From: Candidatus Methanoperedenaceae archaeon
GTDB lineage: Archaea; Halobacteriota; Methanosarcinia; Methanosarcinales; Methanoperedenaceae
Length of the DNA stretch: 64,000 bases
Direction of reading: 5' to 3'
Assembly: GCA_963753595.1 (NCBI GenBank)
Contig: CAVWCX010000001.1
Coordinates: forward strand, 64,001 to 128,000
The notes under the pieces were generated by a model that searched no databases, was not told the DNA's origin, and saw only the letters and a list, made by a program, of their open reading frames with translations. Position 1 is the stretch's first letter. Each line of letters starts with the position of its first letter. The position numbers were made by a program, and so were the translations under genes. Below, one piece after another: positions 18,298 to 61,181 of this stretch.

Positions 18298-18301
18298 AAA
18301 A

Positions 18302-18961: not shown

Positions 18962-18965
18962 TACC

Positions 18966-20420: not shown

Positions 20421-20424
20421 TTCA

Positions 20425-21990: not shown

Positions 21991-21998
21991 GTGAAATA

Positions 21999-22337
21999 AT
22001 GCTTGAAATACTTAAGAAAACCATTAAAACCGGCTGCCAAACAACGAAATATCCCGCTGTACCTGATATTGCGCCGGAGGGATTTCGCGGAAAACCGGAG
22101 TTCACTTCCAATAATTGTACCTATTGCGGTGAATGCGTCAAAGCCTGTCCGCCTGGTGTTATCCTGCTTAAAGAAAAAAGCGGCGAAAAGACGCTTTCAT
22201 TATCATATTGCGGCTGCATATTCTGTGGAAGATGCGAGGAAGTATGCAAATACGGTGCCGTCAGGCTTACACAGGAATATGAACTCGCATCAAAGACAAA
22301 AGAAGACCTTGTTACCAGTATCCGGAGAAAGTTATGA
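21999..22337 (+). CDS. 2x[4Fe-4S] ferredoxin subunit (HyfH/NuoI-like)
   Basis: FRGKP, CTYCGECVKACP, CIFCGRCEEVC. Confidence 0.9.
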   Translation: MLEILKKTIKTGCQTTKYPAVPDIAPEGFRGKPEFTSNNCTYCGECVKACPPGVILLKEKSGEKTLSLSYCGCIFCGRCEEVCKYGAVRLTQEYELASKTKEDLVTSIRRKL

Positions 22338-22822
22338 CCGTTGAAGATGAAATAGAGATCATGGGGCAGCGCCTGAATGATAAAATAAGGAATATATTCG
22401 GGCGCTCACTGCATATTCGGGAGGTAGATGCCGGCTCATGCAATGCATGTGAGGTGGAGGTGAATTCGCTCTCAAATCCGATATACGATATCGAGCGATT
22501 CGGTCTTCATATTGTGGCTTCACCGCGCCATGCAGATATGCTTATTGTCACAGGTCCTGTGACGCGGAATATGGAATTAGCTCTTCTTAAGACATATAAT
22601 GCCACACCAGCACCAAAACTTGTCGCCGCAATGGGTTCATGTGCCTGCAACGGCGGGATTTTTGGCGATACTTACGCAAGCTTGGGCGGAGTTGATAAAA
22701 TTATTCCCGTTGATGTGTATATTCCGGGGTGCCCTCCAAGACCGCAGGCTGTGATTTTTGGACTTATGGTGGCACTTGATAAACTTGAGCAAAAAATCAA
22801 AAAGACAGAGGTCTTATCATGA
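22334..22822 (+). CDS. Ehr small subunit (HyfI/NuoB-like)
   Basis: GSCNACEVE, ASPRHAD, GSCACNGG, PGCPPRP. Confidence 0.92.
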   Translation: MTVEDEIEIMGQRLNDKIRNIFGRSLHIREVDAGSCNACEVEVNSLSNPIYDIERFGLHIVASPRHADMLIVTGPVTRNMELALLKTYNATPAPKLVAAMGSCACNGGIFGDTYASLGGVDKIIPVDVYIPGCPPRPQAVIFGLMVALDKLEQKIKKTEVLS

Positions 22823-42201: not shown

Positions 42202-43683
42202 GTGAATATTTTGACCTTATACACACTTCTTCATAAATCAGTAATTTTGAGTCTTATTTTTATGTTCTTGTCTTCATCAGTATCAGCGAACTGGCAGAAT
42301 TATGGCGGGGATCTTGTGCATAGCGGTTATTCAGGAAGTTCGCAAATTCCATTGGAATTGAGGTGGAAATACCATGCAGGGAACTCAGAAATTTCTGCGC
42401 CTGTTATTGATGAAGGAATACTTTTTGTGGGTTCTGATGATAATAATTTGTATGCTATAGACGCTGTTAAGGGTGAATTAAAATGGCAGTTTCCCGCACT
42501 TGGAAAAGTCTATACACCGGCAGCAAAAAACGGAGTGGTTTTTGCGGCTTCCTATGATAATTATATTTACGCTTTAGATTATAATGGGAACCTGAAGTGG
42601 AAATCTAATATCTGGGGCAGTATAGCCTCGCCTCCAGTTGCTGATAATAATATTCTCTATGGCGGGTCTGAGATGTATATTTATGCAATATTTATAAACA
42701 ATGGCAGTATAAACTGGAAATATGCAACCAACGGCAAGGTAGAATCCTCACCGGCAATATCACAGGGCCTTGTTTATGCCGGATCATACGATGATAACTT
42801 ATACGCCCTGGATGCAGGAAACAAAAACCTCAGATGGAAATATCCGACCGGCGGGAGCGTCACATCGTCTCCGGCTGTGATAAACGGCATTGTATTTGCA
42901 GGGTCAAACGATAACTACATTTATGCTATTGATTCCAATAGCGGAGAATTGAAATGGCGAAAAAAAACAAATGATATAGTAAAATCAACTCCTGCAGTTT
43001 TTCAAAAATCGGTTTATGTAGGTTCTAATGACAATACATTATATGCAATGGACATGGATAATGGGGATATTATCTGGAAATTTGTAACCAACGGATGGGT
43101 AGACTCACAACCAATAGTGACAAAAGATATTGTTTATGCAGGATCAAAAGACGGAACCATTTATGCTATTGATAGGGAAAAAGGAACTAAAGTCAGTAGT
43201 TATGATGCAGGCAGCGGAATAATTTCCCTGGCAATATCTGATAGTATCTTGTATGCTACATCAAATGATGGTTATGTTTATGCTTTTGGTGCCCGGATTC
43301 CTGAATCGACAACGATCTCTAAAGTCGCTCAGGATTTGATCCCTCCTGAACTTAGAATAAATCCTATTCCCATAAATGTTACTTCTGATACACTGACCGT
43401 TTCAGGCACAGCAAAGGATCCAGGCGGCATATTGATTGTTACAGTTAATGGTATTGATGCCGGGGCAGATAACTGGAAAACAACATTGAAACTTTCTAAT
43501 GGTATAAATATTATATCGATAAAGGCAGTAGATAAATCAGGAAATATTAAAACAGAGGTTCGTACGGTTAGATATAATCCTCCTGAAATTCAGGAAACAC
43601 CTGAAGTTCCGGGATTTTCTCTTTATCTTTGTTTAGTATCCTTTGCAGCAATTGTAATTTTTAGTAAAAATAAAAAAAATTAA
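42202..43683 (+). CDS. PQQ-like/BamB-type beta-propeller surface protein with Ig-like domain and PGF-CTERM
   Basis: Signal peptide, repeated V.SSPA...G.VY.GS.D..LYA.D...G...WK blades, VPGF-TM-basic tail. Confidence 0.85.
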   Translation: MNILTLYTLLHKSVILSLIFMFLSSSVSANWQNYGGDLVHSGYSGSSQIPLELRWKYHAGNSEISAPVIDEGILFVGSDDNNLYAIDAVKGELKWQFPALGKVYTPAAKNGVVFAASYDNYIYALDYNGNLKWKSNIWGSIASPPVADNNILYGGSEMYIYAIFINNGSINWKYATNGKVESSPAISQGLVYAGSYDDNLYALDAGNKNLRWKYPTGGSVTSSPAVINGIVFAGSNDNYIYAIDSNSGELKWRKKTNDIVKSTPAVFQKSVYVGSNDNTLYAMDMDNGDIIWKFVTNGWVDSQPIVTKDIVYAGSKDGTIYAIDREKGTKVSSYDAGSGIISLAISDSILYATSNDGYVYAFGARIPESTTISKVAQDLIPPELRINPIPINVTSDTLTVSGTAKDPGGILIVTVNGIDAGADNWKTTLKLSNGINIISIKAVDKSGNIKTEVRTVRYNPPEIQETPEVPGFSLYLCLVSFAAIVIFSKNKKN

Positions 43684-43733: not shown

Positions 43734-45995
43734 ATGACAATCTTAAATAAAATCAAGCTGGATTCTAAGAGCCACATTTTCTTATTTTTAATACTTTTAA
43801 TCGGTCTTATTGTAAGGTTTTTTACTTTTTCCCAGGTATTTGAACAAGGCCGGATAGTGTTTCTTGAGACAGATCCATATTATCATATGTGGCGGGTATT
43901 TTCATATATTGAGATGTTCCCAAAAACATTCTTTTTTGATCCGTTTATTAATTATCCATACGGAGTTGTTGTGGGGTGGCCGCCCCTCTTTGATCAAATT
44001 ATCGCGCTTATATCTTTAATTGCCGGTCTTGGGAAACCTGGCATACATCTTGTTGAAACGATAGGAGTATTTATTCCTGTTATTTCAGGTATTTTCTCAA
44101 TAATTTCAGTATATTATATAACAAAAGAAATTTTTAATGAACGTATCGCCCTCTACAGTTCCCTTTTACTTGCAGTGATGCCGGCGCATGCCCAGATATC
44201 TTTTCTTGGATTTACAGACCATCATATCGCAGAAGTTCTAATTTCGGTTCTGGCTTATTTGTTTTTTATAAAATCAATAAAAAAAGAATCCTGTTTGTTT
44301 TCAATTTTATCCGGAATTATGATCGGATTATCTTTTTTAATATGGATTGGGGCACCGATATTCATCGGGATAATATTATCCTATATAGTCATTCAATTCG
44401 TTTTGGATAAAAAATCAAATATTAATTCTGATTATCTTCTGAAAACCGGTACAATTTCTTTTTTGACCGCATTTGTTATGATCATCTTTTTTTATCTCTG
44501 GACACCATGGCAAAAGGATATCCAGGCAGGTACGCTGTCATATTTTCAGCCAGTATATGTATTTTTATGTGCTATAATAGTACTTGTTTTTGGGATAACT
44601 TCCAGGATAATGAAGGATAAAAAATGGGTTTTATTTCCGATAATGATTTTAATTATGTTCACTTCCTTTTTTTCAATACTGGTATTTAGTTTTCCATCTT
44701 TCTATGATAATTTATTAAATGGCATAGGATATTTGCTCACGGATGCGCCTCTATTAAAACAAATAGTTGAGGCACAGCCGTTATTTTATACCTATGACGG
44801 GATTTTCCTGGGATGGCAATTCTTCAGTAACCCTGTGTGGTATTCATTTGCTTTTAGTTTTTATTTTGCGATCATCGGGCTTTTATTATTGTTATATTAC
44901 CATCGAACAGGAATTGATAAAGGAAGATTGTTTCTTGTAATATGGACATCGATAGTCCTTGTGCTTGCATTGTTCCAGAGACGCTTCACTTATACGCTGG
45001 CAGTGAATGTTGCGATATTGTCGGGATTTTTTATAGATAATATCACATTTAATATACGTAATATATATAAAACATATACATATAAGTCCATGGCTTTTAA
45101 TCTGAAATCGGGCCACATCGCTTTGTTAATTCTCATGGTTCTTTGTATTCCAAATTTAGTATTGGCATATAACATGGCACAGTCCCCGCCCAAACCTTCG
45201 GATGACTGGTATGAATCATTGATATGGTTAAGAGAAAACACTCCTGATCCGGGAAAAAGTCCTGAATATGGCATAATGACATGGTGGGATTACGGGAACT
45301 GGATCTTGTATATCTCAAAGCGCCCTGTTGTTGCTAATAATTTCCAGATTGGCGGGGACAGCGCTGCGAAGTTTTTTGTTGCGCCGGATGAGACTGCTGC
45401 AAATAAGATAATGGATATGCGAAAAGCAAGATATGTGATCCTTGATCACAGGATGGGCTTAAATAAGTTCAGGGAGGGAGATCAAGTCTTGTTAAGAGGT
45501 ACATTCTTTGCTATTGCAGGTTTTGCAGACGAGGATATTGCAATGTATTTAGACCGAAATAACCTTCCCAATCAAAATTTTGCCAATACCATGTATGCCA
45601 GGATGCACATATTTGACGGAAACGGGCTTGAATATTACAGGATGATTTACGAATCAAAAGAGACACATTATAACTTATTCGACAGGCCCACGAGAAATAT
45701 CAAAATATTTGAATACGTAAAAGGAGCAAAAATTACTGGAAAAGCATCATCAAATGCAACTGTTTTTATTTCAGGAAAAATAATTACAAACCAGGGACGC
45801 ATATTTGATTATTTAAAGGAAGTAAAAGCTGATGAAAAAGGATATTTTGAGTTCATTGTCCCGTATTCCAGAGAAGGTCCATATGAAACAACATTACTGA
45901 ATAGTTATAACATAAAATACGACAATTCAAATATTTCTATCAACGTATCAGAGAATGATGTCCTGAAGGGAAATATAATAAAGGTGAACTTATGA
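43734..45995 (+). CDS. aglB: Oligosaccharyltransferase AglB/STT3 paralog
   Basis: ETDPYYH, GFTDHH.AE, I.EAQPL, QRRF.Y, MTWWDYGNWI, R.VVANNFQ, KIFEYVKGA. Confidence 0.92.
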   Translation: MTILNKIKLDSKSHIFLFLILLIGLIVRFFTFSQVFEQGRIVFLETDPYYHMWRVFSYIEMFPKTFFFDPFINYPYGVVVGWPPLFDQIIALISLIAGLGKPGIHLVETIGVFIPVISGIFSIISVYYITKEIFNERIALYSSLLLAVMPAHAQISFLGFTDHHIAEVLISVLAYLFFIKSIKKESCLFSILSGIMIGLSFLIWIGAPIFIGIILSYIVIQFVLDKKSNINSDYLLKTGTISFLTAFVMIIFFYLWTPWQKDIQAGTLSYFQPVYVFLCAIIVLVFGITSRIMKDKKWVLFPIMILIMFTSFFSILVFSFPSFYDNLLNGIGYLLTDAPLLKQIVEAQPLFYTYDGIFLGWQFFSNPVWYSFAFSFYFAIIGLLLLLYYHRTGIDKGRLFLVIWTSIVLVLALFQRRFTYTLAVNVAILSGFFIDNITFNIRNIYKTYTYKSMAFNLKSGHIALLILMVLCIPNLVLAYNMAQSPPKPSDDWYESLIWLRENTPDPGKSPEYGIMTWWDYGNWILYISKRPVVANNFQIGGDSAAKFFVAPDETAANKIMDMRKARYVILDHRMGLNKFREGDQVLLRGTFFAIAGFADEDIAMYLDRNNLPNQNFANTMYARMHIFDGNGLEYYRMIYESKETHYNLFDRPTRNIKIFEYVKGAKITGKASSNATVFISGKIITNQGRIFDYLKEVKADEKGYFEFIVPYSREGPYETTLLNSYNIKYDNSNISINVSENDVLKGNIIKVNL

Positions 45996-47605
45996 AACCC
46001 ATATGCAAAATAATGATAATATTAATTATTTTTTATTCAAGCATTTTTCCGGTATTTGCCGAGGAGCCGGAATGGGTCGATCCCCAGGAAAAAACGATGA
46101 GAATGACAGAATCATTTACAAGAGAAGGCTATGTTATAGAAGCAACTGATTTTTATGATTATTCAGCATTGATAACGGTCTTTGATACAAAAGGAAACCT
46201 TGTAACAAGAAATGTGACTCGAATTGATGATTATTTTGTCGTTGATGACAGGTTAAATATTAGTATAATCAACCTTCAGGAAGTCAGGGGTAACATAGGA
46301 GCAAATCTCGGATTAAATGTATCTGTGGACCAGTGGGTGAAGATAAGAACAAGAGTGAAAGGAAGGCCTTCAATAAAATTATCAATCATCCCGAAAGGGA
46401 TCGAAATTAATAATAAGTCAATTGTCAGGCATACATATATTCCTGGCTCTGAAATCGCGGTAAATTTTTCAGTAAGGAACGAGGGTAAGGCCAGGCTAAA
46501 AGATATGATCTTAAAGATCAATACCTCGATGCCAGTGCTGTATGATGAAAAATTGAATTATGAAATACTTGAATTGGGCGCGGGAAACGAATCCGATCCG
46601 ATCACTGTCAGGTTTCAGGCACCGTACACAGGAGAGCGAAAGTCGATATCGATCATGGTAGAAGCAATTGGATATGATATCTATGGGAAGGCATATAGGG
46701 CAGCTGATTCAGCATTTATCGAGTTAATCCCTCCATTTGATAATAAAATCGATCTTAAAAAATATATTTCAGAAAAAGTATATATGGGTGACGTTGCCGT
46801 TGTTTCCATAAATATCAGGAACAATGGAAGTCAAAAATTAGATAATGTGAATTTAACTGACAGTCTTCCACCCGGGATCGAACCAATAGATACGAACCTT
46901 TCATGGAATTTTACTTTAGGGCCATTTGAACAAAAAACAATATCATATATGGTAAAACCCCAAAAACCCGGAATTTATTTCTTCTTACCGGGAAGTTCCA
47001 TTATTGAATATCAGGGCGTATTGGATTACAATAAGAAACCCATTAAATTGATCGTGGGCGGTCCTTATGTAGTTTTATTGAAATATGCAAGCTCCTATGA
47101 TATTTTCAAAGGCGATAATGTCAATGTAACGGTGGAAGCTAAAAACATGGGAGATGCCACAGCGATAGTAAAACTCAATGAAACTATCCCGGCGAATTAT
47201 TCCCTGACTTTCGGGAACCAAACATATGAGACAGTTTCAGATACTATGGTACTTCATCCCGGTATGTCGGGATCATTTTCTTATTTGCTTTTTGCATCTG
47301 GCACAGGAGGTTTTATTCTCCCGCCGGCAAAAGCAATAATTCTTGATAAGATCCTGTATAAGGATGAACGATATACACAAAGAGCCACTTCGGCTGAAGT
47401 GATAATAAAAGTCAGGGAGCCATTGAAAATGGAACTTTCCTCTTCCAAAATGACTTCAATACCGAAAAAATCCACCAGTCCTGAAAGTATTGAGACAAAT
47501 GTCCCATCTGAAACACCTAAATCTTCAGCTGGATTCGAGGGATATATTTTTATCATTTTCGTCCTAGTTATAGTGGTTATAAGAAAATTGAATTTCAGAA
47601 TTTGA
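45992..47605 (+). CDS. Multi Ig-like (BatD/DUF11-type) surface glycoprotein with PGF-CTERM-like tail
   Basis: Signal peptide, V.I.N.G...L.NV.LTDSLP.G repeats, Ser/Thr/Pro linker, AGFE-TM-RK. Confidence 0.75.
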   Translation: MKPICKIMIILIIFYSSIFPVFAEEPEWVDPQEKTMRMTESFTREGYVIEATDFYDYSALITVFDTKGNLVTRNVTRIDDYFVVDDRLNISIINLQEVRGNIGANLGLNVSVDQWVKIRTRVKGRPSIKLSIIPKGIEINNKSIVRHTYIPGSEIAVNFSVRNEGKARLKDMILKINTSMPVLYDEKLNYEILELGAGNESDPITVRFQAPYTGERKSISIMVEAIGYDIYGKAYRAADSAFIELIPPFDNKIDLKKYISEKVYMGDVAVVSINIRNNGSQKLDNVNLTDSLPPGIEPIDTNLSWNFTLGPFEQKTISYMVKPQKPGIYFFLPGSSIIEYQGVLDYNKKPIKLIVGGPYVVLLKYASSYDIFKGDNVNVTVEAKNMGDATAIVKLNETIPANYSLTFGNQTYETVSDTMVLHPGMSGSFSYLLFASGTGGFILPPAKAIILDKILYKDERYTQRATSAEVIIKVREPLKMELSSSKMTSIPKKSTSPESIETNVPSETPKSSAGFEGYIFIIFVLVIVVIRKLNFRI

Positions 47606-47625
47606 ATTACTAATGGGTTTCCTAC

Positions 47626-48300
47626 ATGTTGAAAAAATTATTTACAAAAAATAACAGGGAATATCGGTTAATAAAGACAACCTTGATAATATCTGTCTTA
47701 ATAATTTTTGTTTCTTCTCTTGCAATATCCGTAAATGCATACGAAAGACCCGAATATACGGATGGATTGACTGATAAATGGCATCCAGGCGCCTATTGTA
47801 TACCCTGTCATTATACCCTGTTGAGTACGGATAAAGCCCAATCGATTTCAAATGGGTGCAAATGCCATGATTACGTACCGAAAAATGCAGAAAATAAGTA
47901 TAAAGTTGATATGACAAAGATTTTCAATATCCATGAGGATATCGTATGCATAAGGTGCCATGTTGGTGTGAAGGAAGGGACCAACGTGACCGCGGCGGAT
48001 TTCCACAGGATAATGAACAAAGAGACATGCATGACATGCCATACTTATGAGAATGGCACGATCCAAAAGCCACTAAAAACGAAATGCTCCGACTGTCATT
48101 CAGGTGATCCGCATGTGGTTCACGGCAAAAGGCTTGAAAAAATGTGCGAGACATGTCATGGGGATTTTGCGAAAAACTATGTTGGGGGTAAAACAATTAG
48201 TCCCATATCGACTAAACCTGAAGTTGCTGTTAAGGAATACACAACAATAGGGCAGATTATCAGTAACTTAGTTGAGTCTTTAATGCAAATATTCAGGTGA
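47626..48300 (+). CDS. Secreted multiheme cytochrome c (5 CxxCH + 1 CxCH)
   Basis: CIPCH, CKCH, CIRCH, CMTCH, CSDCH, CETCH; PH.VH distal ligands; amphipathic C-terminal helix. Confidence 0.88.
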   Translation: MLKKLFTKNNREYRLIKTTLIISVLIIFVSSLAISVNAYERPEYTDGLTDKWHPGAYCIPCHYTLLSTDKAQSISNGCKCHDYVPKNAENKYKVDMTKIFNIHEDIVCIRCHVGVKEGTNVTAADFHRIMNKETCMTCHTYENGTIQKPLKTKCSDCHSGDPHVVHGKRLEKMCETCHGDFAKNYVGGKTISPISTKPEVAVKEYTTIGQIISNLVESLMQIFR

Positions 48301-48728
48301 ATATGAAATTAATTCTGGTGCTGTTTTTCATTTCAGTAATGATTTTCTCCGGCTGCATAGGAAATCCCACAAAACAAGTACCTGTAGTACATGTTAATAT
48401 CACTTTTGTGGAAAAAGAGGGTTTTTCGCAAGTGCAAAATTATAAAATAACCCAGGAGACGGTCAACTATCTTGGAAGGCCTAAAAAAACCCAGGCTGAA
48501 TCTTTCCCTGCCATAACTGCAAGAACGATGATAATGAAAGAAAAAAATAGTAGTATAGGGCCATGGGAAACTCTGTCCTATAATGGAAATGGGATTTATT
48601 CATTTAATATCGGATTTAAGGACGACAATTATCCTGCAGCCGGAGATAAAGTACATATTTCTATAATGGTCGTTGATAAAAAAGGGGATAGAATAGGATA
48701 TTTCGTGCAGGATATGGTTTGGGAATGA
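48297..48728 (+). CDS. Lipoprotein
   Basis: Lipobox FSGC; GTGA overlap with the cytochrome. Confidence 0.75.
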   Translation: MNMKLILVLFFISVMIFSGCIGNPTKQVPVVHVNITFVEKEGFSQVQNYKITQETVNYLGRPKKTQAESFPAITARTMIMKEKNSSIGPWETLSYNGNGIYSFNIGFKDDNYPAAGDKVHISIMVVDKKGDRIGYFVQDMVWE

Positions 48729-48853
48729 AATTGATACACTAAATATTGAGTATCCTGATATAATATTGAAATCATAAAGTATTTATGGCAATAAAAGAAA
48801 TAAAAGGGTAGTAAAGGTATGGATATTTGATTTAATAAAAGGTGGAAAGTCTT

Positions 48854-49536
48854 ATGAGTAACAAAATGATATTAATTGGGATTGCAATAGCAGCAATTGG
48901 GTTGGTTGCACTACCACAAACATTAGCATTATTTGCAGGACAGCATAACTTCTATGATAATATAGGCAATGGCGCTGCAGCTATTCCATGTGAGAAATGC
49001 CATGCGGATGTATTTTCAGAACTGAGCCAGCCCGGATCAGTAAATGCAGTTCATATGCGTCAGGGTTGTGAGGGATGCCATGTAACGACTGCTCCTACGA
49101 AAGAAGGGCTTGTGCAGGGTGGGAATTTAACGGATGATTTCCACGCAGCTGCATTACCTTTGTGTTTGGATTGCCATAGTGGCACAGGACCAGGAGCAGA
49201 TGCGAGATCGATACTTGAAGGTACTGTAGAAGCTCATACGGCATTTGCAAACCAGGCTAATGACTCTTTGCTCCTGCGGGGTTCTAATGAAGCATGTATT
49301 TCATGTCATACACATGTTGCGGTGGACATAAACTGGACAAAGGCTTATAAGATCAGCTTCAATGCCATGGAAAATGCAACAACTGGCCTTCATGAATGGA
49401 CTGTTGATAACTTCGCTACAGAAGGTACGGTCCAGATACAGACTACGGCAACAGGTCCGGTGAGATCAATAGTGCAACAGAACCAGTAGTATCTATTACA
49501 CCAGCACCACTAGGTTTTGATCCCAGCAATCCATGA
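48854..49536 (+). CDS. Secreted tetraheme cytochrome c, LFAGQH family (one-base frameshift at ~49443; called ORF stops at 49489)
   Basis: CEKCH, CEGCH, CLDCH, CISCH; the shifted frame gives YGNRSGE...NP*, matching YGNGSGE...TP* of the paralog at 59922; T-rich terminator follows 49536. Confidence 0.85.
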
Positions 49537-49580
49537 GTAAGTAGGAAAAATAACTTTTTTTCCTATTTTTATCTTTTTTT

Positions 49581-50306
49581 ATGTATATCCCTTTAAATGA
49601 TATACTGTTTCTTTTAATTCTTTTGGCATTTTTGATAATGGTATATAGAAGAATTATTTACAGCATTAGTTTTTCTGAGCCAATTATCCAAACCTTTAAA
49701 ACTTTTGACAGGAAGCATAGGATCAATGCTTATATTAAACAAATAAACCAAAGACCAGAAGAATCCCAGAAAGTCGTATTAAAAGAGCTATTTATTTTTA
49801 TATTTGCACTAATGATAATGTTCCTTTTTGCTTCAAAAGCAATTTTGTTTACAGCTGTGATATCAGGGAGCATGTCTCCCACCTTCGATAAGGATGATCT
49901 TGTCCTTATGCAGAATATAGACCGTACATACAAACCCGGGGACATAATAATGTTCGAGCGGCCAGATACTTCATTTCCTGTTGTACATAGAATAAAGCAG
50001 ATTACAGACAAAGGTATAAATACAGCAGGTGATGCCACGGATCAGGTGGACTGGTGGGAACTCGAAAAAGAAAAAATTCTCGGGAAAGCTATTATGATAC
50101 AGGGGAAACCAGTAGTTATAAAAGGATATGGTAAGTTCTTCATAATTGATGAACGTAACCAGGACTTTGGTCCAATGGGGCAGGATTACGGAAAATACTT
50201 TTTATTTTTCCAGATTATAAAGATTTATGGATATGTTATTGCAGTGTTTTCTTTATTTCTTTATATTTTTATGACATTAAGGCAAAAGCCATGGCAAAGT
50301 AGATAA
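49581..50306 (+). CDS. Archaeal/SipW-type signal peptidase I (S26B)
   Basis: VISGSMSPT (Ser), PGDIIMF, VVHRI (His), T.GD; extra TM helices. Confidence 0.88.
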   Translation: MYIPLNDILFLLILLAFLIMVYRRIIYSISFSEPIIQTFKTFDRKHRINAYIKQINQRPEESQKVVLKELFIFIFALMIMFLFASKAILFTAVISGSMSPTFDKDDLVLMQNIDRTYKPGDIIMFERPDTSFPVVHRIKQITDKGINTAGDATDQVDWWELEKEKILGKAIMIQGKPVVIKGYGKFFIIDERNQDFGPMGQDYGKYFLFFQIIKIYGYVIAVFSLFLYIFMTLRQKPWQSR

Positions 50307-50329
50307 TATTCTGAATGATAGGTGTATAA

Positions 50330-51895
50330 ATGGAAAAAAGGCATATCTTGCTTATCGTGGCGTTACTTTCTGCCATAGTATTCGTAATGCCAAATATTTA
50401 TTCTTTATTTGCAGGCCAGCACTGGTTTTATGATACTGGAGTGTCCTATTGCCTGAAATGCCATTCTGATATCAAACAGGAGCTTGATTCCCAATTCCAT
50501 CATACTTTTACATGCGAAAACTGCCACTCTATCAATACGAATTCAAATGCAACGCATGGAAATGTGGTTTCACCCAGATGCCTTGATTGCCATTCTAATC
50601 CCGGGCGTCTAGTGACGGATTCAAATGGAAATACATTCCTCACTCCTCTTGCATATGTTTTTGGAGAAAATGTAACAAATGCGGAATCACATAAGCCTTT
50701 GATTACAGGGGCCAATTCATCACCTCTTATGAAAGGTGAAAATGAAGCATGTTTTTCCTGCCATACCAGGAAATCGATCAGCATCAATATACGTTATGCA
50801 GATACATACAGTTTCAATTCCCGCAGGGCTGATAACGGCACATGGCAAATGTGGGATTATTCAAAAAATGCCGAAAATTCAGTAAATTTGATTATCCAGG
50901 CCAACGAATCTTCAGGAAAGCATTTGTTTTTATCATTAAATCAATTAAAATGTGAAAAATGCCATCCGAATACTGGAGACGAGCTCACAAGTTCCTCCCA
51001 TCATACATACTTTTCATGCAACTCCTGCCATCAGCTGTATTCGACATACCATGTATCAAGTATCCCCCCATGTCTTGAATGTCACGGCACAGAGCCAAAG
51101 ATGGTCACTGATATGCAAAAGAATACATATGTTGCATCTGCAGCTAAAGTCTATTCAGAAAATACGATAGGGGCAGATGCACATCTCCCGTTTGTCCTGG
51201 GCGCAAATTCAAGCAATTTATCTGCAGGCAGTAACATTGCCTGCTTTTCATGCCATTCCGGTTTAAATAATAAGATAATTTTTTCAAGACCGGAATATAT
51301 TGAATGGGATGTTGAAAATTCAGGCGGCACATGGACGATACAAAATCTTGCATTGGGAGAAACAAAGGAAGTGAAGGTTACAAAATATTCAGATGGAAAA
51401 TCCCATAATATCTCTATGGATACAGGTTGCATATCCTGCCACGATGACATAAGGCAGGCAGTCTCTAATGGCGGACATTCTAACGAGCAGTGGGGAATGA
51501 AACATAATTATTCCGATTATAGCGATATGAACTTTTATTGCAGGTCATGCCATGATCCATTTACTAAAGATAACTTTAATAATTCTCCATATCCAGCCTA
51601 TCCTTTTAACTCCATCAATCATGGTTCTATTAAAATACTATGTATGGATTGTCATGGCAGATCAGGAAGTTTGTCAGTAAGCTTCAATGGGATCATGAAG
51701 ATTCCATCTTACAACAGTACTTCCATGGGCAATATTGAGAGTTCGATCAGCCTCCAGCCGGATTTTATTCAATCGTACCTGTGCATAGCATGTAAGAACA
51801 CGGGGAATCCTGTTCCGAATACTTCATTACACTTTAAATTATATACTGAACCTGAGGTAAAGGTTTATGTCAATGGGACGCAACGATATCCGTAA
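50330..51895 (+). CDS. Secreted dodecaheme cytochrome c (11 CxxCH + CxxCK) made of three tandem LFAGQH-family tetraheme units
   Basis: CLKCH/CENCH/CLDCH/CFSCH; CEKCH/CNSCH/CLECH/CFSCH; CISCH/CRSCH/CMDCH/CIACK. Confidence 0.9.
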   Translation: MEKRHILLIVALLSAIVFVMPNIYSLFAGQHWFYDTGVSYCLKCHSDIKQELDSQFHHTFTCENCHSINTNSNATHGNVVSPRCLDCHSNPGRLVTDSNGNTFLTPLAYVFGENVTNAESHKPLITGANSSPLMKGENEACFSCHTRKSISINIRYADTYSFNSRRADNGTWQMWDYSKNAENSVNLIIQANESSGKHLFLSLNQLKCEKCHPNTGDELTSSSHHTYFSCNSCHQLYSTYHVSSIPPCLECHGTEPKMVTDMQKNTYVASAAKVYSENTIGADAHLPFVLGANSSNLSAGSNIACFSCHSGLNNKIIFSRPEYIEWDVENSGGTWTIQNLALGETKEVKVTKYSDGKSHNISMDTGCISCHDDIRQAVSNGGHSNEQWGMKHNYSDYSDMNFYCRSCHDPFTKDNFNNSPYPAYPFNSINHGSIKILCMDCHGRSGSLSVSFNGIMKIPSYNSTSMGNIESSISLQPDFIQSYLCIACKNTGNPVPNTSLHFKLYTEPEVKVYVNGTQRYP

Positions 51896-52877
51896 AAAAA
51901 TCAAGAACCCTTTACTTGATGTTAATGAAGATGTATCTGTCAGGCCTTTTGAGCATTATTCGTTCTTTGATAAAATAGGCGTTGCCAGTGCTTTGATCAT
52001 GTCGATGGCGATATTATTAATGTCAATCATTTCTTTTTATATTGATTTTGTAAAATCAAATTATCTTTATACATTGATAGATTTAATTATTTTTGTATTC
52101 TCTCTGGGAGCTGTATACTTTGTCTTAAATGCTTTCAAGAAAAGAGTGATCACTGACCTATTGATAGATACGGCATTCCAGGAAGGAGTTTATTCAAGAC
52201 TTGCGCCTTTGGTTGAAAATATAGCCAGGTCGCATGTAGATACAAATATTATTCTGGACAGGATGTCCAATATTGATTTGAAGGTCGAAAATATTTTAAA
52301 AGAAGGGTATGCAAGGGATATAAAATCAGGTGACGTTTTACAGGAGCCCATTGCTGTTGCAACCTCAATTAAATTCGCGATCAAATCGATTTTTTTAATA
52401 GTTGTGACAATGGCTGTTTTTATGTTCCTTTTAAATTTTAATCTCGCTGGTATTACTCCCTATGCTGTTCTTTTGGTATTTATCGCATGGTGGGGATTTA
52501 TAACAAACGAATATAATTTATGGAAGGAGTCTTCTGCCTGGGCAATGGTTTTTCTCCCAATACTTGTGATACCGGTAGCCGTCATGCTTTTAGCAAATCT
52601 TTTGAATTATAACGTATTAATGGCGATACTATATGTATCTGTTGGATTATATACATTTGTTTATTATATCTGGGCTGTATATGCATCAACAGGAAGCCTG
52701 CCATTAATCGCGACAAGAAAACAAGAACAGGTAGAAAGTGAATTTTTCGCTTTACAACAAAAAGGAATGCTGAAAAAACTTTTTGATTTATCAATTTCAA
52801 GAGTTGAACAAAAATTGCAGGAAGACAAGAAAAAGCAGGAATCAGATTATATCTGGAAAAAATCTTTGAAGGACTGA
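51867..52877 (+). CDS. Polytopic membrane protein (~6 TM) of unknown function
   Basis: Overlaps the dodecaheme gene; 2+4 TM helices with a cytoplasmic coiled segment. Confidence 0.75.
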   Translation: MSMGRNDIRKKIKNPLLDVNEDVSVRPFEHYSFFDKIGVASALIMSMAILLMSIISFYIDFVKSNYLYTLIDLIIFVFSLGAVYFVLNAFKKRVITDLLIDTAFQEGVYSRLAPLVENIARSHVDTNIILDRMSNIDLKVENILKEGYARDIKSGDVLQEPIAVATSIKFAIKSIFLIVVTMAVFMFLLNFNLAGITPYAVLLVFIAWWGFITNEYNLWKESSAWAMVFLPILVIPVAVMLLANLLNYNVLMAILYVSVGLYTFVYYIWAVYASTGSLPLIATRKQEQVESEFFALQQKGMLKKLFDLSISRVEQKLQEDKKKQESDYIWKKSLKD

Positions 52878-53433: not shown

Positions 53434-54957
53434 TCATATAAAAGTAGTTGCAGTCTCTTCCACCAAATAAATAGCTACACCTTTTCGTGTGAGGTAATGG
53501 AAACGATCAGGGGAATCAAACATGATCCCTCCTCCATCGTAGATAAAGATAATAGAATCATATCTCTTTCCGTCTTTCCCATCCACAACAACGAATTGCC
53601 CGTCATTGTTTGAAGCCCCATAGACCAGATGCTTGTTATCCGGGCTGAAAAGTAAAGAACCTTCTATAATATCATCATATTGTTTTCCTATATTGCCGTC
53701 AATAACATCTTTTAAACCATCATCATTTCCAAAATCTTCAAAATTCATGGGGACAGAGCTAAATGAAATCACGCCGCTATAAGTTGATTTTTTCTCAGTT
53801 GTTTCCTCTATCACGAACCATTTATCTTTTTCTCTTGCCGCATAAGCTACCCGTTTGCTGTCAGGGCTAAATACTGGAGTATATTTCAGGATATCATCAT
53901 ACCGCTGTCCCTCTTTTCCATCCACAACTACGAACCATTTATCGCCTTCTCTTGCTGCGTAAGCGATCCTTTTTCCATCAGGACTGAAGGTGATACTATG
54001 TTTCAATATGCTGCCGTATATTTTTTCCTCTTTTCCATCTACTACTACAAACCACCCATTTCCCTCTCTTGCTGCATAAGCGATCTGTTTGCTGTCCGGG
54101 CTGAAGATGGGAGTGTATTTCAGGATTTCATCATATGTTTTCCCTTCCTCTTCATTTTCTACAACAAACCACTTTCCGTCCTTTTTTGCTACATAAGCCG
54201 TCTTATTGCTGTCAGGACTGAACATGAGGGTGTTTGTCAGTATGCTATCATATTGCTGTCCCTCTTTTCCATCCAATACCACAAACAATTTGCCCTCTTC
54301 TCCTGCGACATAGGCTACTCGATTGCTGTCAGGACTAAAGACAGGGTAAAAACTGCTTTGAAATTTCTTATCTTCTTTTCCATCCACAACCACGAACCAT
54401 TTATCTTCCTCCCTTGCTTCATAGGCTATCCTTTCGCTGTCCGGGCTAAAGACAGGCATTTTGATGCTATCGTATTGTTTTTCTTCTTTTCCATCTACGA
54501 CCACAAACCATTTACTGCTATCATTTGCCACATAAGCCTGGCGCCTGCCATCAGGACTGAAAACCAGGTTTCTAACATTTTCATAATGAGTTTCTTCTTT
54601 TCCATTAAGTACTACAAACCACCTCTCATTCTCTTTTGCGGCATAAGCCAGGCTTTTGCTATCCGGGCTAAAAATGAAACCATTTATATCATCGTATTTT
54701 TTTTCATTTTCTCCATTCAGGACAATGAATTTCTTTTCTCCTTCAGTTTCAACATAAACAAATTGCATACTATCCGGACTTACCTTGAAAGTCTCCGGAA
54801 CCCCCGAAAAAAAACCGAATTTAACAATAAGTTTTTCTGAAATCACCCTGCCGGCTATTTCTTCATTATTTTGCGCTCTTGATGGAGTATCCCGCGAAAT
54901 ACAACCACTTGCCAATATTATTATAATTAGAATAAAAGTAATTATGTATTTTTTCAT
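53434..54957 (-). CDS. TolB/PD40-like beta-propeller lipoprotein
   Basis: Lipobox ASGC; ~9 tandem FSPD.KR.AY.A....KWFVVVDGKE...YD.I repeats. Confidence 0.85.
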   Translation of the reverse strand: MKKYIITFILIIIILASGCISRDTPSRAQNNEEIAGRVISEKLIVKFGFFSGVPETFKVSPDSMQFVYVETEGEKKFIVLNGENEKKYDDINGFIFSPDSKSLAYAAKENERWFVVLNGKEETHYENVRNLVFSPDGRRQAYVANDSSKWFVVVDGKEEKQYDSIKMPVFSPDSERIAYEAREEDKWFVVVDGKEDKKFQSSFYPVFSPDSNRVAYVAGEEGKLFVVLDGKEGQQYDSILTNTLMFSPDSNKTAYVAKKDGKWFVVENEEEGKTYDEILKYTPIFSPDSKQIAYAAREGNGWFVVVDGKEEKIYGSILKHSITFSPDGKRIAYAAREGDKWFVVVDGKEGQRYDDILKYTPVFSPDSKRVAYAAREKDKWFVIEETTEKKSTYSGVISFSSVPMNFEDFGNDDGLKDVIDGNIGKQYDDIIEGSLLFSPDNKHLVYGASNNDGQFVVVDGKDGKRYDSIIFIYDGGGIMFDSPDRFHYLTRKGVAIYLVEETATTFI

Positions 54958-55082
54958 ATTTAATTTAAACAAATTCACTTTTAATAAAGCCTTTAAGTAT
55001 ATAGATTTGGCTGAGTAATCAACCTGTATTGATTGAATGTTTTAAGCCTTATTTTCAAAATCTTTATAAGTAAATCAGTATA

Positions 55083-57732: not shown

Positions 57733-57783
57733 TTTTCAAAAAAGACAAACAGACTGCAGATAAGCGTATTATTGACACTTTCG

Positions 57784-57847
57784 GCCAACATTATCTTAAC
57801 GGCGCCGGGGTTGCGACCCCAGACCCCTGCGGTGCGCCGCCGTTGGC
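57784..57847. repeat. GC-rich palindromic intergenic element
   Basis: GCCAAC...GTTGGC and AACGGCG...CGCCGTT enclosing GGGGTTGCGACCCC. Confidence 0.5.
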
Positions 57848-57894
57848 GGATTATAACATTAACAATACCTGTAATATTTCTAAGTCAAAGACCA

Positions 57895-59637
57895 ATGTAT
57901 AAAAAAATTGTTAAATTATTGGAATCGAACCAAATTCCGTTATCAATATTTTTCATTTCATTATTTGTATTTCTCAGTTTTGCAGGCACACGTATGCTAT
58001 TTTCAGATGAAGGGATAATCGTAAGCCAGTTCTATAATTTTATACATGGTTCTTTAGATTTACAAACGGCCAAAGTGAATGTGGAAAGGGGAATATATAC
58101 GACTGTTGAAAATCATATATATGGAAGATTCAGTTATTCATTGCTTATATTATCTTTACCTGTATATATTATATTAAAAAATATAGATTATTTTTATGGT
58201 GCGCATTTATTTCTTCTGCAGATATGGGCTTTAAGCGGCGGGATATGTGTTTATCTTCTCACAAAAAACTGGAAAATAAAGAATGCGGCATTAGGTGGGG
58301 TTGTATCTTATTTCATATTAATAATGGTCAATCTGCTATCATTTGATCCTATTTATTTTCCTAAATGGGGGGAAATTATATCAATTGAATTTACTAATAT
58401 TCTAATCTCTTCTTTTTTGGTTTTAATGGTATATTTCTTATTCAAGAATCTATTTAATAATAAAATCGCTATCTTCGCGTCTCTTTTTGTTATATTCGCA
58501 ACGCCCATATCCTTTTATTCAATTACGTTGAAGCATCATTCTCTTGCTCTATTATTAACTGTATTGGCATTTTATTTTTTTTATAAATACCAGGAAAAAA
58601 AAGAAAATAAGTTTATTTATTATGCTTATCTATTAGCAGGACTTTGCATCTGGACTAGAATTGCAGAGGGTGCAGCACTTCTGTTGTCCCTCCTTATAAT
58701 AGATATAGTATTTTCCAGGCGAAGCATCAAACATATTGCCTTTGTCTCAATTATTATTCTGGTCTCACTTATCCCATTTTTCATTTTCAATCAATTGATA
58801 CTGGGGAATCCGTTTTCGATCATGGAATTACGCCCCTTAAGTGATATGCCCATGAAAATGGAGATTGAAAAAAATATGATCGTGCTAAGTGAAAGTTCGG
58901 TAAAAGCCAGGCAGGTAGAACTTCTGAATAATCTTGGCTTTATCTGGAATCCAGGGATCAAGACTGCCTTTTTGGACATTATGTCGTATATTTCGATTCG
59001 AAAAATGGGAAACACGTTTGGCCTATTCTTAATAAGTCCATTCTTGATAATCGCGCTTGCGTTTGTTATAGATCGGATAAAAAAGAAAATCAAGTTAAAT
59101 GCAACAGATAAATTATTGGGACTATACGCCATAATATTTATTTTAATACATAAAAATTACCTTAAATTAATAATTACTGATACACCAGTAGTTCTCGAAT
59201 ACAGGTATTTACTTATTATGTATATAGTCCTTCTTTATTTTGGGCTTAGAATAGATAAAGTCGGGGATCTTATTGAAAATAACTATAAGAAAATAGTACA
59301 GTTATACGCAGCCGCAGTAATAATACTAATTTTATATTTTATTAATATTTTTCCTCCCCCCTTCATGAATTTATACTATTCTTTAGCGTTGATCACTTCA
59401 ATCATTTTATTGATTTCATTATCGATGAGTATTTTAATTGAGAATAAAAAATCTTTTGCTGATTTATTGGATAAAATTACATTATTTTTCATCGCATTGT
59501 CACTTGCGCAAGCTTCCATATTGCTGCTTTTTTATTACTGGGTTGTTAGTATTACCTACATTTCGCCATCACAAAATTATACTGTAGTGCCAATTATTGG
59601 GAGTATTTTGAAATGGATGTACCAGGCACTTTTGTGA
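57895..59637 (+). CDS. Polytopic GT-C/PMT-like membrane glycosyltransferase candidate
   Basis: FSDEG in the first loop, many TMs, FATPI.FYS...KHH, WTR..EG, EYRYL; start moved to ATG 57895. Confidence 0.6.
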   Translation: MYKKIVKLLESNQIPLSIFFISLFVFLSFAGTRMLFSDEGIIVSQFYNFIHGSLDLQTAKVNVERGIYTTVENHIYGRFSYSLLILSLPVYIILKNIDYFYGAHLFLLQIWALSGGICVYLLTKNWKIKNAALGGVVSYFILIMVNLLSFDPIYFPKWGEIISIEFTNILISSFLVLMVYFLFKNLFNNKIAIFASLFVIFATPISFYSITLKHHSLALLLTVLAFYFFYKYQEKKENKFIYYAYLLAGLCIWTRIAEGAALLLSLLIIDIVFSRRSIKHIAFVSIIILVSLIPFFIFNQLILGNPFSIMELRPLSDMPMKMEIEKNMIVLSESSVKARQVELLNNLGFIWNPGIKTAFLDIMSYISIRKMGNTFGLFLISPFLIIALAFVIDRIKKKIKLNATDKLLGLYAIIFILIHKNYLKLIITDTPVVLEYRYLLIMYIVLLYFGLRIDKVGDLIENNYKKIVQLYAAAVIILILYFINIFPPPFMNLYYSLALITSIILLISLSMSILIENKKSFADLLDKITLFFIALSLAQASILLLFYYWVVSITYISPSQNYTVVPIIGSILKWMYQALL

Positions 59638-59921
59638 ATTTCCAGGTTAATGTTTAATCATTTTATTAAAAAACGTTCTTAAAATAATGGATAGGATAGG
59701 GAACTTGCAGCCTGATACTATTTATCATGATTAATTGAAATTAATGAATCGTAAAGTATATATGCTGTAAACTCATATCCTAATTATACCCAAATTGACA
59801 CCAAATTGGGAAAATGGATAGGATAGGAGCGATAGCAAAACGAAGATTGTGTTTGCTTGATTCTTATTCTTAACAAACCAAATTGGATTTAGGGTTAATA
59901 AAGATAGGATGTGAAAAATAT

Positions 59922-61181
59922 ATGAACGCAAAATTTACTTTAGCCATAATTGCGTTAGTTGGAATAGGCGTGTTCGCCCTGCCATCAACCATGTCGTTGT
60001 TCGCAGGCCAGCACTCGTTCTATAACATTGACGCAACAGGCAACCAGGTCCCGTGTGTGAAATGCCACGGTGATGTGAAAGCAGAATTGGGATCAAATGC
60101 AAATACAGTTGCAGCCAATGGACCCCTGACAGCAGGACCACACGCAGCATTTAAGTGCGAGTACTGCCACAGAATAGAACAGGGTGCTTCCAGCGGTGAC
60201 AATGCAGTTGCAATAGTTCCATACGAAAATGCGACAGGAGCAATTATAAGGGCAATTGCAATACCAGTATCAGACATGGAAGCAGGTAATTTCCCAACGG
60301 GAATTACGGGTGCTATGCTATTTACTAGCAGCAGTACAACTCTTAATGGTACAAAATTACAATTCGGTAAGGGTGCTATCAGTGCAGCTACAGCCGATGC
60401 AACATTAGAAGTAGCTCCCAGACAAGATTGGACAATAATGGCATCATATGATGCAATTACTGGCTTACCCAAGGATACAAACGCATCCACAATGTATGGT
60501 GGAATTGACCCATCGAAGATAAACGTCACTATAAATACTGCTAGACCATACGTTAGTCTTGGTTTCTTGAATGCAGGTTCACAGGCAGTCAACCCGGGCA
60601 GCAAATATCATGCAGCATCACTTGTATCATGCATGGAATGCCACGGTGGCGAAGAACCACTTGGTCACTATACCAGAGTTACAAGCGAAACGAGATGTTC
60701 TGACTGTCACTACGGTTACAACCCAGTTCCAGGCGCTAGATGGACTCAGCTCGCAGCAGGCGGCTTCGGACTTACAACATCCGCAAATGATACTGGCACA
60801 TCAGAAGCCCATAACGCATGGGTAAAAACCGATGACGGTATAAACAGATTCGGCGGACAACAGGGCAAGGAAGCAAATAACGGTGCATGTATTGGATGCC
60901 ATACCCACGTAGCAGTAGACATTGCATTCAATAAGGGCTACAAGCTCTCATTCACTGCAACCGAGGCAGCAACCGGTTCTTATACTGTTTCCGATGCAAA
61001 AGTTGAGGGAACAGTTCACGTTGACATATACGGCAACGGTTCTGGCGAAACCTTCGGTGTGGGCGACAAGTCCTATACCTGGACACCAGAGACAACCCTG
61101 TATCTCAATGGTAATGGCACAGTTATCAGCGGTCTCAATGGAGACTCCAGCGACAGCGCAACAGCTCTTACAACCCCGTAA
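59922..61181 (+). CDS. Secreted pentaheme cytochrome c, LFAGQH family, with a large heme-free insert
   Basis: LPSTMSLFAGQHSFY, CVKCH, CEYCH, CMECH, CSDCH, ACIGCHTHVAVDI; GGATGTGA RBS before ATG 59922. Confidence 0.9.
   Translation: MNAKFTLAIIALVGIGVFALPSTMSLFAGQHSFYNIDATGNQVPCVKCHGDVKAELGSNANTVAANGPLTAGPHAAFKCEYCHRIEQGASSGDNAVAIVPYENATGAIIRAIAIPVSDMEAGNFPTGITGAMLFTSSSTTLNGTKLQFGKGAISAATADATLEVAPRQDWTIMASYDAITGLPKDTNASTMYGGIDPSKINVTINTARPYVSLGFLNAGSQAVNPGSKYHAASLVSCMECHGGEEPLGHYTRVTSETRCSDCHYGYNPVPGARWTQLAAGGFGLTTSANDTGTSEAHNAWVKTDDGINRFGGQQGKEANNGACIGCHTHVAVDIAFNKGYKLSFTATEAATGSYTVSDAKVEGTVHVDIYGNGSGETFGVGDKSYTWTPETTLYLNGNGTVISGLNGDSSDSATALTTP

Follow-up and report, generated by a model that had tools for sequence, protein, structure and literature searches.

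How a cytochrome nanowire starts, stops, attaches and is composed at its ends is an open question, stated explicitly for OmcE in the available text of 10.1101/2025.10.22.684050, and for the Methanoperedenaceae the spatial organisation of extracellular cytochromes is named as a gap in the available portions of PMC13046784. One gene of a Candidatus Methanoperedenaceae archaeon brings this question to a defined locus. We analysed a stretch of 64,000 nucleotides from contig CAVWCX010000001.1 (assembly GCA_963753595.1, positions 64,001 to 128,000 of the forward strand), referred to below as the window and numbered from its first letter. It encodes a four-heme cytochrome, ECN4, homologous to AvECN, which is reportedly the extracellular cytochrome nanowire of Archaeoglobus veneficus (F2KMU8, PDB 8E5G) described by Baquero et al. 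in 2023, and, a short distance downstream, a twelve-motif multiheme cytochrome that we call MHC12. What could such a protein do beside a nanowire subunit? We propose, with belief and doubt about evenly balanced, that MHC12 is a minor subunit encoded within the cluster and that it defines one end of an AvECN-type filament, as its seed, its cap or both. It is a concrete candidate for an end subunit: its features can be read as those of a donor that is not an acceptor, and its last heme is unusual.

MHC12 consists of three modules homologous to the four-heme nanowire subunit

The MHC12 gene is a plus-strand open reading frame (ORF) at 50330..51895 with an ATG start, encoding 521 amino acids (aa). 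A motif scan identified eleven CxxCH motifs, starting at aa 41, 62, 84, 141, 208, 230, 248, 305, 367, 404 and 438, and a twelfth motif, CIACK, at aa 485; all 24 of the 24 Cys residues fall inside these twelve motifs. The N-terminus matches the pattern of the ECN4 family and of chain 8E5G_A: S-L-F-A-G-Q-H occupies aa 25-31, the same pattern is present in both relatives, and a Sec-type signal peptide ending in S-L-F is predicted at aa 1-27 (50330..50410, +), its exact cleavage site being deduced from this likeness.

ECN4 itself (48842..49489, +; likely start ATG 48854, with GGTGG ahead) matched 8E5G_A at E 1.3e-27, which upholds the view that the tetraheme unit is an AvECN-type nanowire subunit. 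An initial annotation of this DNA had described MHC12 as a covalent trimer of the tetraheme unit, a description borne out by self-alignment with BLASTP and by hhalign comparison of its three modules. R1 and R2 share 38 % identity (E 5e-32 in a four-sequence BLASTP database); in the same database the matches to the ECN4 monomer were 3e-20 for R1, 2e-18 for R2 and 1e-3 for R3, and R3 matched R1 at 5e-8. Global hhalign comparison to the ECN4 family gave 100 % (E 5e-45) for R1, 99.9 % (E 2e-35) for R2 and 97.9 % (E 3.5e-12) for R3. In these profile-profile alignments all four motif positions are in register between the modules and ECN4, and CIACK falls on the fourth CxxCH of ECN4.

All three modules lie on the plus strand. 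R1 (aa 28-195, 50411..50914) contains the A-G-Q-H donor strand with H31, four CxxCH motifs and a four-strand beta domain; R2 (aa 196-355, 50915..51394) contains an internal G-K-H with H198, four CxxCH motifs and a beta domain; and R3 (aa 356-521, 51395..51892; about 165 aa and four heme motifs) contains K-S-H with H359, three CxxCH motifs plus CIACK, the invariant H383 and H392, and a short tail. The ECN4 family (36 sequences) has four conserved His residues outside the heme motifs, namely H35 in the N-terminal G-Q-H strand, H71, H101 and H132, and equivalents of all four are kept in R1 (H31, H58, H76, H121) and R2 (H198, H225, H241, H285). In an alignment of 49 twelve-motif homologues the strand residues H31, H198 and H359 are invariant, as are K489 and S25, and F27 and G29 are at least 90 % conserved. 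The earlier proposal that the N-terminal GQH motif recurs ahead of each module therefore stands, and the stretches SGKHLF (aa 195-200), DGKSHN (aa 355-360) and STSMGN (aa 463-468) to which it drew attention are all present.

MHC12 and ECN4 thus share with AvECN their homologous modules, a signal peptide and the G-Q-H strand, and 8e5g is the only credible, if weak, fold match. According to the available text of PMC12954529, AvECN is a homopolymer of a single four-heme unit in which all hemes are bis-His ligated. MHC12 differs in having three units per chain and in the structure of the last unit, in which the terminal motif is CxxCK, one conserved His has been lost and the beta domain is shortened.

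The third module lacks conserved subunit features and ends in a lysine heme motif

Of 6490 candidates from a word-indexed search, 72 proteins had an E of 1e-3 or lower, and 68 of these 72 (P0001-P0068) are close homologues. Twelve motifs are present in 48 of these proteins, eight in another 18, and nine in 2 incomplete records. The eight-motif forms consist of R1 and R3; R2 is absent from them and the end module is always kept.

R3 differs from the subunit plan at several points. In the hhalign alignment the equivalent of ECN4 H132 is a Ser, and the segment separating the last two motifs is free of His in 44 of 53 rows with twelve motifs and in 15 of 15 with eight; the equivalent segments of the inner modules hold at least one His in all 53 of 53 rows. 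The conserved E(A/S)H motif noted in the initial annotation holds for the monomer (EAH) and repeat 1 (ESH), and its loss from repeat 3 is confirmed by the Ser; repeat 2 reads DAH and does not fit the motif as written. R3 holds two invariant His residues, H383 and H392, where the other modules need one, and both M466 and H501 are at least 90 % conserved among the 49 twelve-motif homologues. R3 stops 32 residues after its last motif; the corresponding stretch is at least 59 residues long in ECN4, 50 in R1 and 46 in R2. What is left in R3 aligns with the opening strands of the beta domain, of which it is apparently a remnant, and makes up a conserved C-terminal tail (..L-H-F-K-x-Y-T-E-P..; 51797..51892, +) that includes H501. 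A tail His occurs in 49 of 53 rows with twelve motifs and in 15 of 15 with eight.

CIACK (aa 485-489; 51782..51796, +) aligns to the fourth CxxCH of the nanowire subunit. The motif is real: 66 of the 68 close homologues end in CxxCK and two (P0039 and P0059) in CxxCH, and CxxCK recurs in Archaeoglobaceae relatives. The Lys codon is AAG, from which any His codon is two base changes away. A sequencing error at this codon, which the initial annotation had wished to see excluded, was ruled out by that two-base distance and by the K in 66 of 68 close homologues. An open coordination site at the Lys heme would not be required, because R3 has a surplus of conserved His residues (H383, H392 and H501) together with M466, and it is possible that M466 replaces the lost His as a ligand.

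Predicted docking of MHC12 on the four-heme subunit

In a PDB sequence search, MHC12 matched 8E5G_A at E 9.9e-8 over the N-terminal module. In an AlphaFold2 (AF2) model of MHC12, four strands follow motif 4 in R1 and in R2, and three short strands follow it in R3. When this heme-free model was searched against the PDB with Foldseek, 8e5g was a weak match (E 7.4e-3, probability 0.96, TM-score 0.41 for the target); no other entry fell below E 1 or exceeded a probability of 0.1.

We then predicted the complex of MHC12 (aa 28-521) with one copy of ECN4 (aa 32-215) in three runs, using our own alignments and no hemes. The ipSAE scores were 0.74, 0.77 and 0.74, and the best control scored 0.00. Of 157 solved complexes 116 reach the mark applied, and of 215 mismatched pairs 2 do so, counts that are approximate for runs with our own alignments. 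At least 92 % of contacts were common to the three runs, with a partner pLDDT of at least 70. On the ECN4 side the predicted interface comprises residues 56-68, 71, 120-132, 136, 153-161 (the fourth motif) and 163-203 (the beta domain); on the MHC12 side it comprises 28-36 (the H31 strand), 40-47, 66-81, 123-157, 177-196 and 295-298. The His residues in this interface are H71 and H132 of ECN4 and H31 of MHC12, joined by H76 of MHC12, and the N-strand of ECN4 is left free.

The model supports binding between MHC12 and ECN4, in a docking geometry that is itself a product of the prediction. In that geometry the elements altered in R3 (the Lys of motif 4, the lost His and the shortened beta domain) would be the equivalents of the ECN4 receiving face. 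The suggestion in the initial annotation that an altered last repeat could stop elongation fits this result, since the R3 changes map onto the face predicted to receive the next subunit.

Conservation and gene order across archaeal lineages

An exhaustive search of 1.84 billion representatives returned 221 proteins at E up to 1e-3, among them proteins of about 400 aa with six CxxCH motifs, one CxxCK and the same Y/W-T-E-P tail. Genomic context was examined for the best 80 matches, which gave 64 loci; the A. veneficus locus is not among them. By protein identity the nearest loci belong to LFW-24, an isolate of an uncultured archaeon (89 %), and to Ca. Methanoperedens sp. BLZ2 (88 %).

MHC12 is flanked in the window by a cluster-specific signal peptidase I (S26, archaeal/SipW-like; 49581..50306, +; Pfam PF10502, NCBIfam TIGR02228 at E 5.5e-16), from which it is separated by only 23 nucleotides, and by mem336 (51867..52877, +), a multi-pass membrane protein of no known family whose start overlaps the end of MHC12 by 29 nucleotides. 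The order peptidase, multiheme cytochrome, mem336 is found in 10 of 10 Methanoperedenaceae-type loci (L001-L009 and L021). ECN4 lies upstream in 8 of these 10; L006 ends at a contig edge, and L008 has no ECN4 within 2.5 kb. Across all 64 loci a peptidase homologue is present in 27 and a mem336 homologue in 24, and mem336 never occurs without the peptidase.

Other lineages carry related proteins of different length. All five Archaeoglobaceae-type loci (L010, L013, L014, L017 and L020) have a gene for a 202-203-aa ECN4-like protein followed directly by one for a 396-415-aa protein with six CxxCH motifs and a CxxCK. Two of these loci contain up to three tandem pairs of ECN-like and CxxCK-cytochrome genes (the cytochromes being about 400-435 aa), with overlaps of a few bases within pairs (L010:4606-9886 and L014:7989-13253), and in both the middle cytochrome (L010:6575-7885, L014:9972-11264) has an extra CxxCH eight residues after the CxxCK. 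All five ANME-1-type loci have, between the genes for peptidase and mem336, one for a small protein of 108-135 aa that contains 2-3 motifs and shares the N-terminal strand, written S-L-F-G-G-[DQ]-H (L034:3029-3376, L036:10806-11132, L040:10984-11391, L044:2801-3136 and L049:10389-10736); this protein may be a minimal version of the minor subunit. Further lineages have 9-10-motif proteins that end in CxxCH and keep the N-strand and a tail of the E-[SP]-E-P type.

A FastTree phylogeny of 106 last modules placed the K-type modules in one group of 86 rows (82 K and 4 H; SH-like support 90) that spans Methanoperedenaceae and Archaeoglobaceae-type proteins. Two of the 'H' rows of the tree still hold a CxxCK eight residues upstream. 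The tree needs at least four changes between K and H, and several long branches leave its deep order unsure.

Four homologues (P0053, P0065, P0067 and P0074) continue past the tail with Thr/Pro-rich extensions of about 85 to 230 aa that are dense in N-glycosylation sequons. Inspection of the C-termini of MHC12 and of these four proteins revealed no terminal membrane segment, anchor or sorting signal.

A candidate end subunit with a donor strand and an apparently lost acceptor face

These features can be combined into a mechanism. MHC12 of this Methanoperedens-like archaeon would be secreted as three filament subunits in one chain. Its R1 donor strand, which follows the signal peptide and bears His31, would plug into the acceptor face of a normal four-heme subunit, to which the beta domain, the fourth heme and the region around His132 contribute. 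We infer that a unit lends the His of its N-strand to the previous unit and the equivalents of H71 and H132 to the next. R1-R2-R3 would then be a covalent copy of three polymerised subunits, in which R1 still needs an ECN4 in front. R3 would have no acceptor face, with its beta domain cut to 32 residues and the forward-lent His gone; its fourth heme would be bound through CxxCK with the conserved tail His nearby, and the spare His and Met residues of R3 would close this last heme within the module itself. R3 would need nothing behind it because the lent His has been dropped, the docking domain shortened and a spare His and Met retained. No subunit would add behind R3, and the Lys-bound heme would be the last heme of the chain. 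Since R1 keeps its donor strand and R3 appears to have lost its acceptor face, MHC12 would therefore join the filament at one end only. The cross-subunit ligands assumed here build on the available text of 10.1101/2023.06.12.544705, which speaks of '0, 1 or 3' His residues coordinated to adjacent subunits, and the Fig. 1 legend of PMC11936953, by the same author, also implies several inter-protomer His-Fe bonds in AvECN.

The position of this end relative to the cell depends on the route of assembly. If the last-added subunit were tethered by its uncleaved signal peptide and handed its N-strand on, the seed would come to lie at the far tip; if secreted subunits added to a cell-bound seed, MHC12 would lie at the base. 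We lean slightly towards a subunit that is built first and ends at the far tip. The Thr/Pro-rich extensions of P0053, P0065, P0067 and P0074 and the overlap with mem336 agree with a tip as well as with a base. The existence of eight-motif forms made of R1 and R3, a T-rich stretch after ECN4 and the short gap between peptidase and MHC12 genes fit a minor subunit made together with assembly genes.

Dedicated end subunits are known in unrelated filaments: the PapH terminator and the tip adhesins of chaperone-usher pili, TapA of TasA fibres and CsgB of curli. The available text of PMC12337348 adds TafC and TafF as minor end proteins of archaeal Tafi pili. As judged from sequence and model, MHC12 resembles such proteins in its homology to the major subunit and in sharing a gene cluster with it, and it would have one half of the interface and not the other; a dedicated signal peptidase stands beside it, as in the Tafi and TasA systems. 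It differs from PapH, TapA, CsgB and the Taf end subunits in having no sequence or fold relation to them, in a heme and His-Fe interface, and in being a tandem fusion of three copies of the major subunit. Another parallel has been postulated for OmcE, where a 'stopper' or tip protein is expected to be subunit-like with an altered His count or more exposed hemes; the available text of 10.1101/2025.10.22.684050 reports no tip candidate in OmcE operons and a stopper candidate outside the OmcE cluster. MHC12 fits that description in an archaeal system, although the OmcE and ECN folds are unrelated.

A published counterpart from the same genus is the ECN(Mv) cluster of 'Ca. Methanoperedens vercellensis' which, according to the available text of PMC13748539, likewise has a four-heme AvECN homologue and a large multiheme cytochrome a few genes downstream, both detected outside cells. 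In the electrode-medium proteome of this organism the four-heme ECN had an area of 1.28e8, and an 11-motif, 71.5-kDa cytochrome encoded three genes downstream had an area of 1.04e7 (PMC13748539). From its gene position and motif count we take the latter to be the probable counterpart of MHC12.

A number of observations weigh against an end subunit or weaken the case for it. The inability of R3 to accept a subunit is deduced from elements it lacks. The tail His that would lie near the Lys heme is missing from 6 of 11 seven-motif K proteins, and the last site is CxxCH in 2 of 68 close homologues and in most ANME-1, Syntrophoarchaeum and other relatives. The overlapping gene pairs of the Archaeoglobaceae, two or three per locus, would suit 1:1 partners better than a cap present in few copies. 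Sub-stoichiometry is hinted at by an area ratio of roughly 12:1 between ECN and the probable counterpart of MHC12, in label-free data from another species. The AF2 model of MHC12 is a moderate one (pLDDT 68.5, pTM 0.58, best in R3), and the docking pass, obtained with one ECN4 copy and no hemes, may reflect the prediction model's memory of, or mere likeness to, the solved 8E5G structure. On balance we regard MHC12 as a real, conserved feature for which an end-subunit mechanism is plausible.

A more ambitious version of this proposal, which we put forward tentatively and consider unlikely, is that MHC12 forms the 'business end' of the nanowire and would be the first such end to be defined genetically: a preformed three-module seed that initiates the wire and sets its polarity, located at the far tip, whose Lys heme, possibly with open coordination, passes electrons to minerals, electrodes or partner cells. 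The device would be old and common to Methanoperedenaceae and Archaeoglobaceae, with one- and two-module versions in the same slot of other alkane- and methane-oxidising archaea.

Alternative explanations

The alternative that survives best, although we still consider it unlikely, is a cell-side seed or anchor comparable to TapA or CsgB. Here MHC12, placed at the cell surface, would offer its N-strand to the first ECN4, the wire would grow away from the cell, and through the Lys heme electrons would enter from donors on the cell surface. The donor-only logic is the same as for the end subunit proposed above, and the two differ only in which end faces the cell. The sequon-rich, Thr/Pro-rich extensions of four homologues favour an anchor, such extensions being typical of archaeal surface stalks. 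The same is true of the overlap of the MHC12 gene with that of a membrane protein, in a gene order kept in all ten Methanoperedenaceae-type loci, and of the archaeal Tafi pilus loci, which pair a dedicated signal peptidase with tip and anchor proteins (available text of PMC12337348). Conversely, neither MHC12 nor its extended homologues have a C-terminal membrane anchor or sorting signal on inspection, the cluster offers other anchor candidates in DUF11/CARDB proteins with hydrophobic C-terminal ends, and the probable Ca. M. vercellensis counterpart was recovered in the medium fraction (PMC13748539). In addition, mem336 may be the peptidase-linked membrane protein ('8x TMH') of PMC9012536, whose available text notes the pair of peptidase and membrane protein and argues that the latter is a maturation factor and not an anchor.

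An improbable alternative is a wire of finite length, in which MHC12, alone or 1:1 with an ECN4-like protein, conducts electrons through the pseudoperiplasm and S-layer as a rod of 12 to 16 hemes and has only ancestry in common with nanowire subunits. The overlapping ECN4-like/CxxCK gene pairs, up to three per Archaeoglobaceae-type locus (L010 and L014), speak for such a rod, and module number varies by lineage, from the 3-motif ANME-1 proteins to 12 motifs, in a way that could match envelope thickness. Against it stand the full donor strand in R1 and the model, which docks ECN4 in a polymer-like manner; under the cross-subunit His scheme, moreover, a free MHC12 would leave R1 hemes without a sixth ligand. 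ECN4 also has a T-rich stretch to itself and stands outside the MHC12 operon, an arrangement that fits unequal expression.

That MHC12 is a terminal reductase we consider very doubtful. In this case the CxxCK heme would be a five-coordinate, Lys-ligated, NrfA-like site for nitrite or another small substrate, fed by the other eleven hemes. NrfA does share the CxxCK heme motif with MHC12. In NrfA the active site is at this motif, the first in the protein, and the Lys heme is surrounded by catalytic Arg, Tyr and His residues and a Ca2+ site (available text of PMC4683180); the CxxCK of MHC12 comes twelfth and last, in alignment with a normal electron-transfer heme site of the nanowire subunit. The strict conservation of CxxCK would suit an enzyme, heme-motif variants are said to occur mostly in enzymes (available text of PMC4429474), and Methanoperedens matures a CxxCK heme in its own NrfA (available text of PMC4683180). 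However, neither Pfam nor NCBIfam returned NrfA or another enzyme family at E up to 0.01, the sub-threshold matches being generic multiheme models such as the NrfB- and NrfH-like ones. The only relevant match in PDB sequence and fold searches was 8E5G, which the sequence search (E up to 1) returned with one unrelated multiheme chain; solved NrfA, ONR and Otr structures were not matched. H and K interchange in the wider family, the spare conserved His and Met residues of R3 could close the sixth position, and about 165 aa with four hemes would leave little room for a substrate pocket. Membership of the NrfA family was accordingly rejected, and with it the catalytic, NrfA-like Lys heme envisaged in the initial annotation was not sustained.

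The least credible alternative is a second type of filament, a thicker wire built by head-to-tail polymerisation of MHC12. MHC12 has a donor strand, and Ca. M. vercellensis showed a rare, thicker, unidentified filament when ECN ranked second in abundance among its cytochromes (available text of PMC13748539), but R3 appears to be without acceptor elements and some homologues have tails of >200 aa on the R3 face.

Relation to published work and implications

The ECN family and its presence in Methanoperedenaceae are already known (available text of PMC13046784), and the ECN cluster has been drawn with heme counts in a figure of PMC13748539, the available text of which names only the four-heme protein and does not discuss the repeats or the CxxCK of the large cytochrome. 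Our literature search found no description of the large ECN-cluster cytochrome as fused nanowire units, or of its CxxCK end; Baquero et al. 2023, which lay outside that search, could cover part of this. If the proposed role of MHC12 is correct, the protein would define filament polarity, would provide a handle for labelling wire ends in methane-oxidising archaea, and would be a case of covalent subunit fusion used to seed or cap a heme wire.

Gene cluster surrounding MHC12

MHC12 belongs to a cluster transcribed from one strand (43734-52877, +) that runs from an AglB oligosaccharyl-transferase paralogue to mem336. The AglB paralogue (43734-45995, +) opens the cluster and is followed by a DUF11/CARDB surface protein (45992-47605, +); both assignments rest on Pfam and on synteny in L001-L004 and L007. 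Next come a 5-heme c3/c7-like cytochrome (47626-48300, +), with a homologue in 18 of 64 loci, and a 143-aa protein (48297-48728, +) with a homologue in 17 of 64, the two forming a conserved pair ahead of ECN4.

The 3' end of ECN4 carries a one-nucleotide deletion. Within 49443-49535 the window reads ACAGAC-TACGG, compared to ACAGACATACGG in the relatives L001, L002 and L007. The deletion ends the ECN4 ORF early, at 49489; in the relatives the frame is conserved to a TGA at the equivalent of about 49533-49535. Either the assembly is wrong here, or a genuine frameshift deprives the major subunit of about 30 residues at its C-terminus.

At the downstream end of the cluster, mem336 had no match in Pfam, NCBIfam or Atlas and none by Foldseek at E up to 0.001. 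Its AF2 model is all-helical (pLDDT 68.8, pTM 0.38), and its family has an invariant W208-W209 pair and no invariant His; these features speak neither for nor against a part in heme handling, as put forward in PMC9012536.

There are 13 N-x-S/T sequons in MHC12 and 4 in ECN4, and a PMT_2-type glycosyltransferase is encoded downstream of the cluster at 57772-59637. Together with the cluster-encoded AglB paralogue, the sequons and this glycosyltransferase suggest a dedicated N-glycosylation of the wire proteins.

Two beta-propeller proteins (PQQ/BamB-like and PD40 repeats) flank the cluster (42202-43683, +, and 53434-54978, -). According to the available text of 10.1101/2025.10.22.684050, a pair of beta-propeller lipoproteins is a constant part of the OmcE nanowire clusters of bacteria. 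Farther downstream, at 59883-61181, lies the gene for a 432-aa, 5-motif multiheme cytochrome with c7/c3-like matches that is seemingly unrelated to the ECN family. Well upstream, 15361-22822 encodes an Mrp/Mbh-like membrane complex with antiporter-type and NuoH-like proteins, a fused 30K/49K NiFe-hydrogenase-like large subunit and a 20K subunit.

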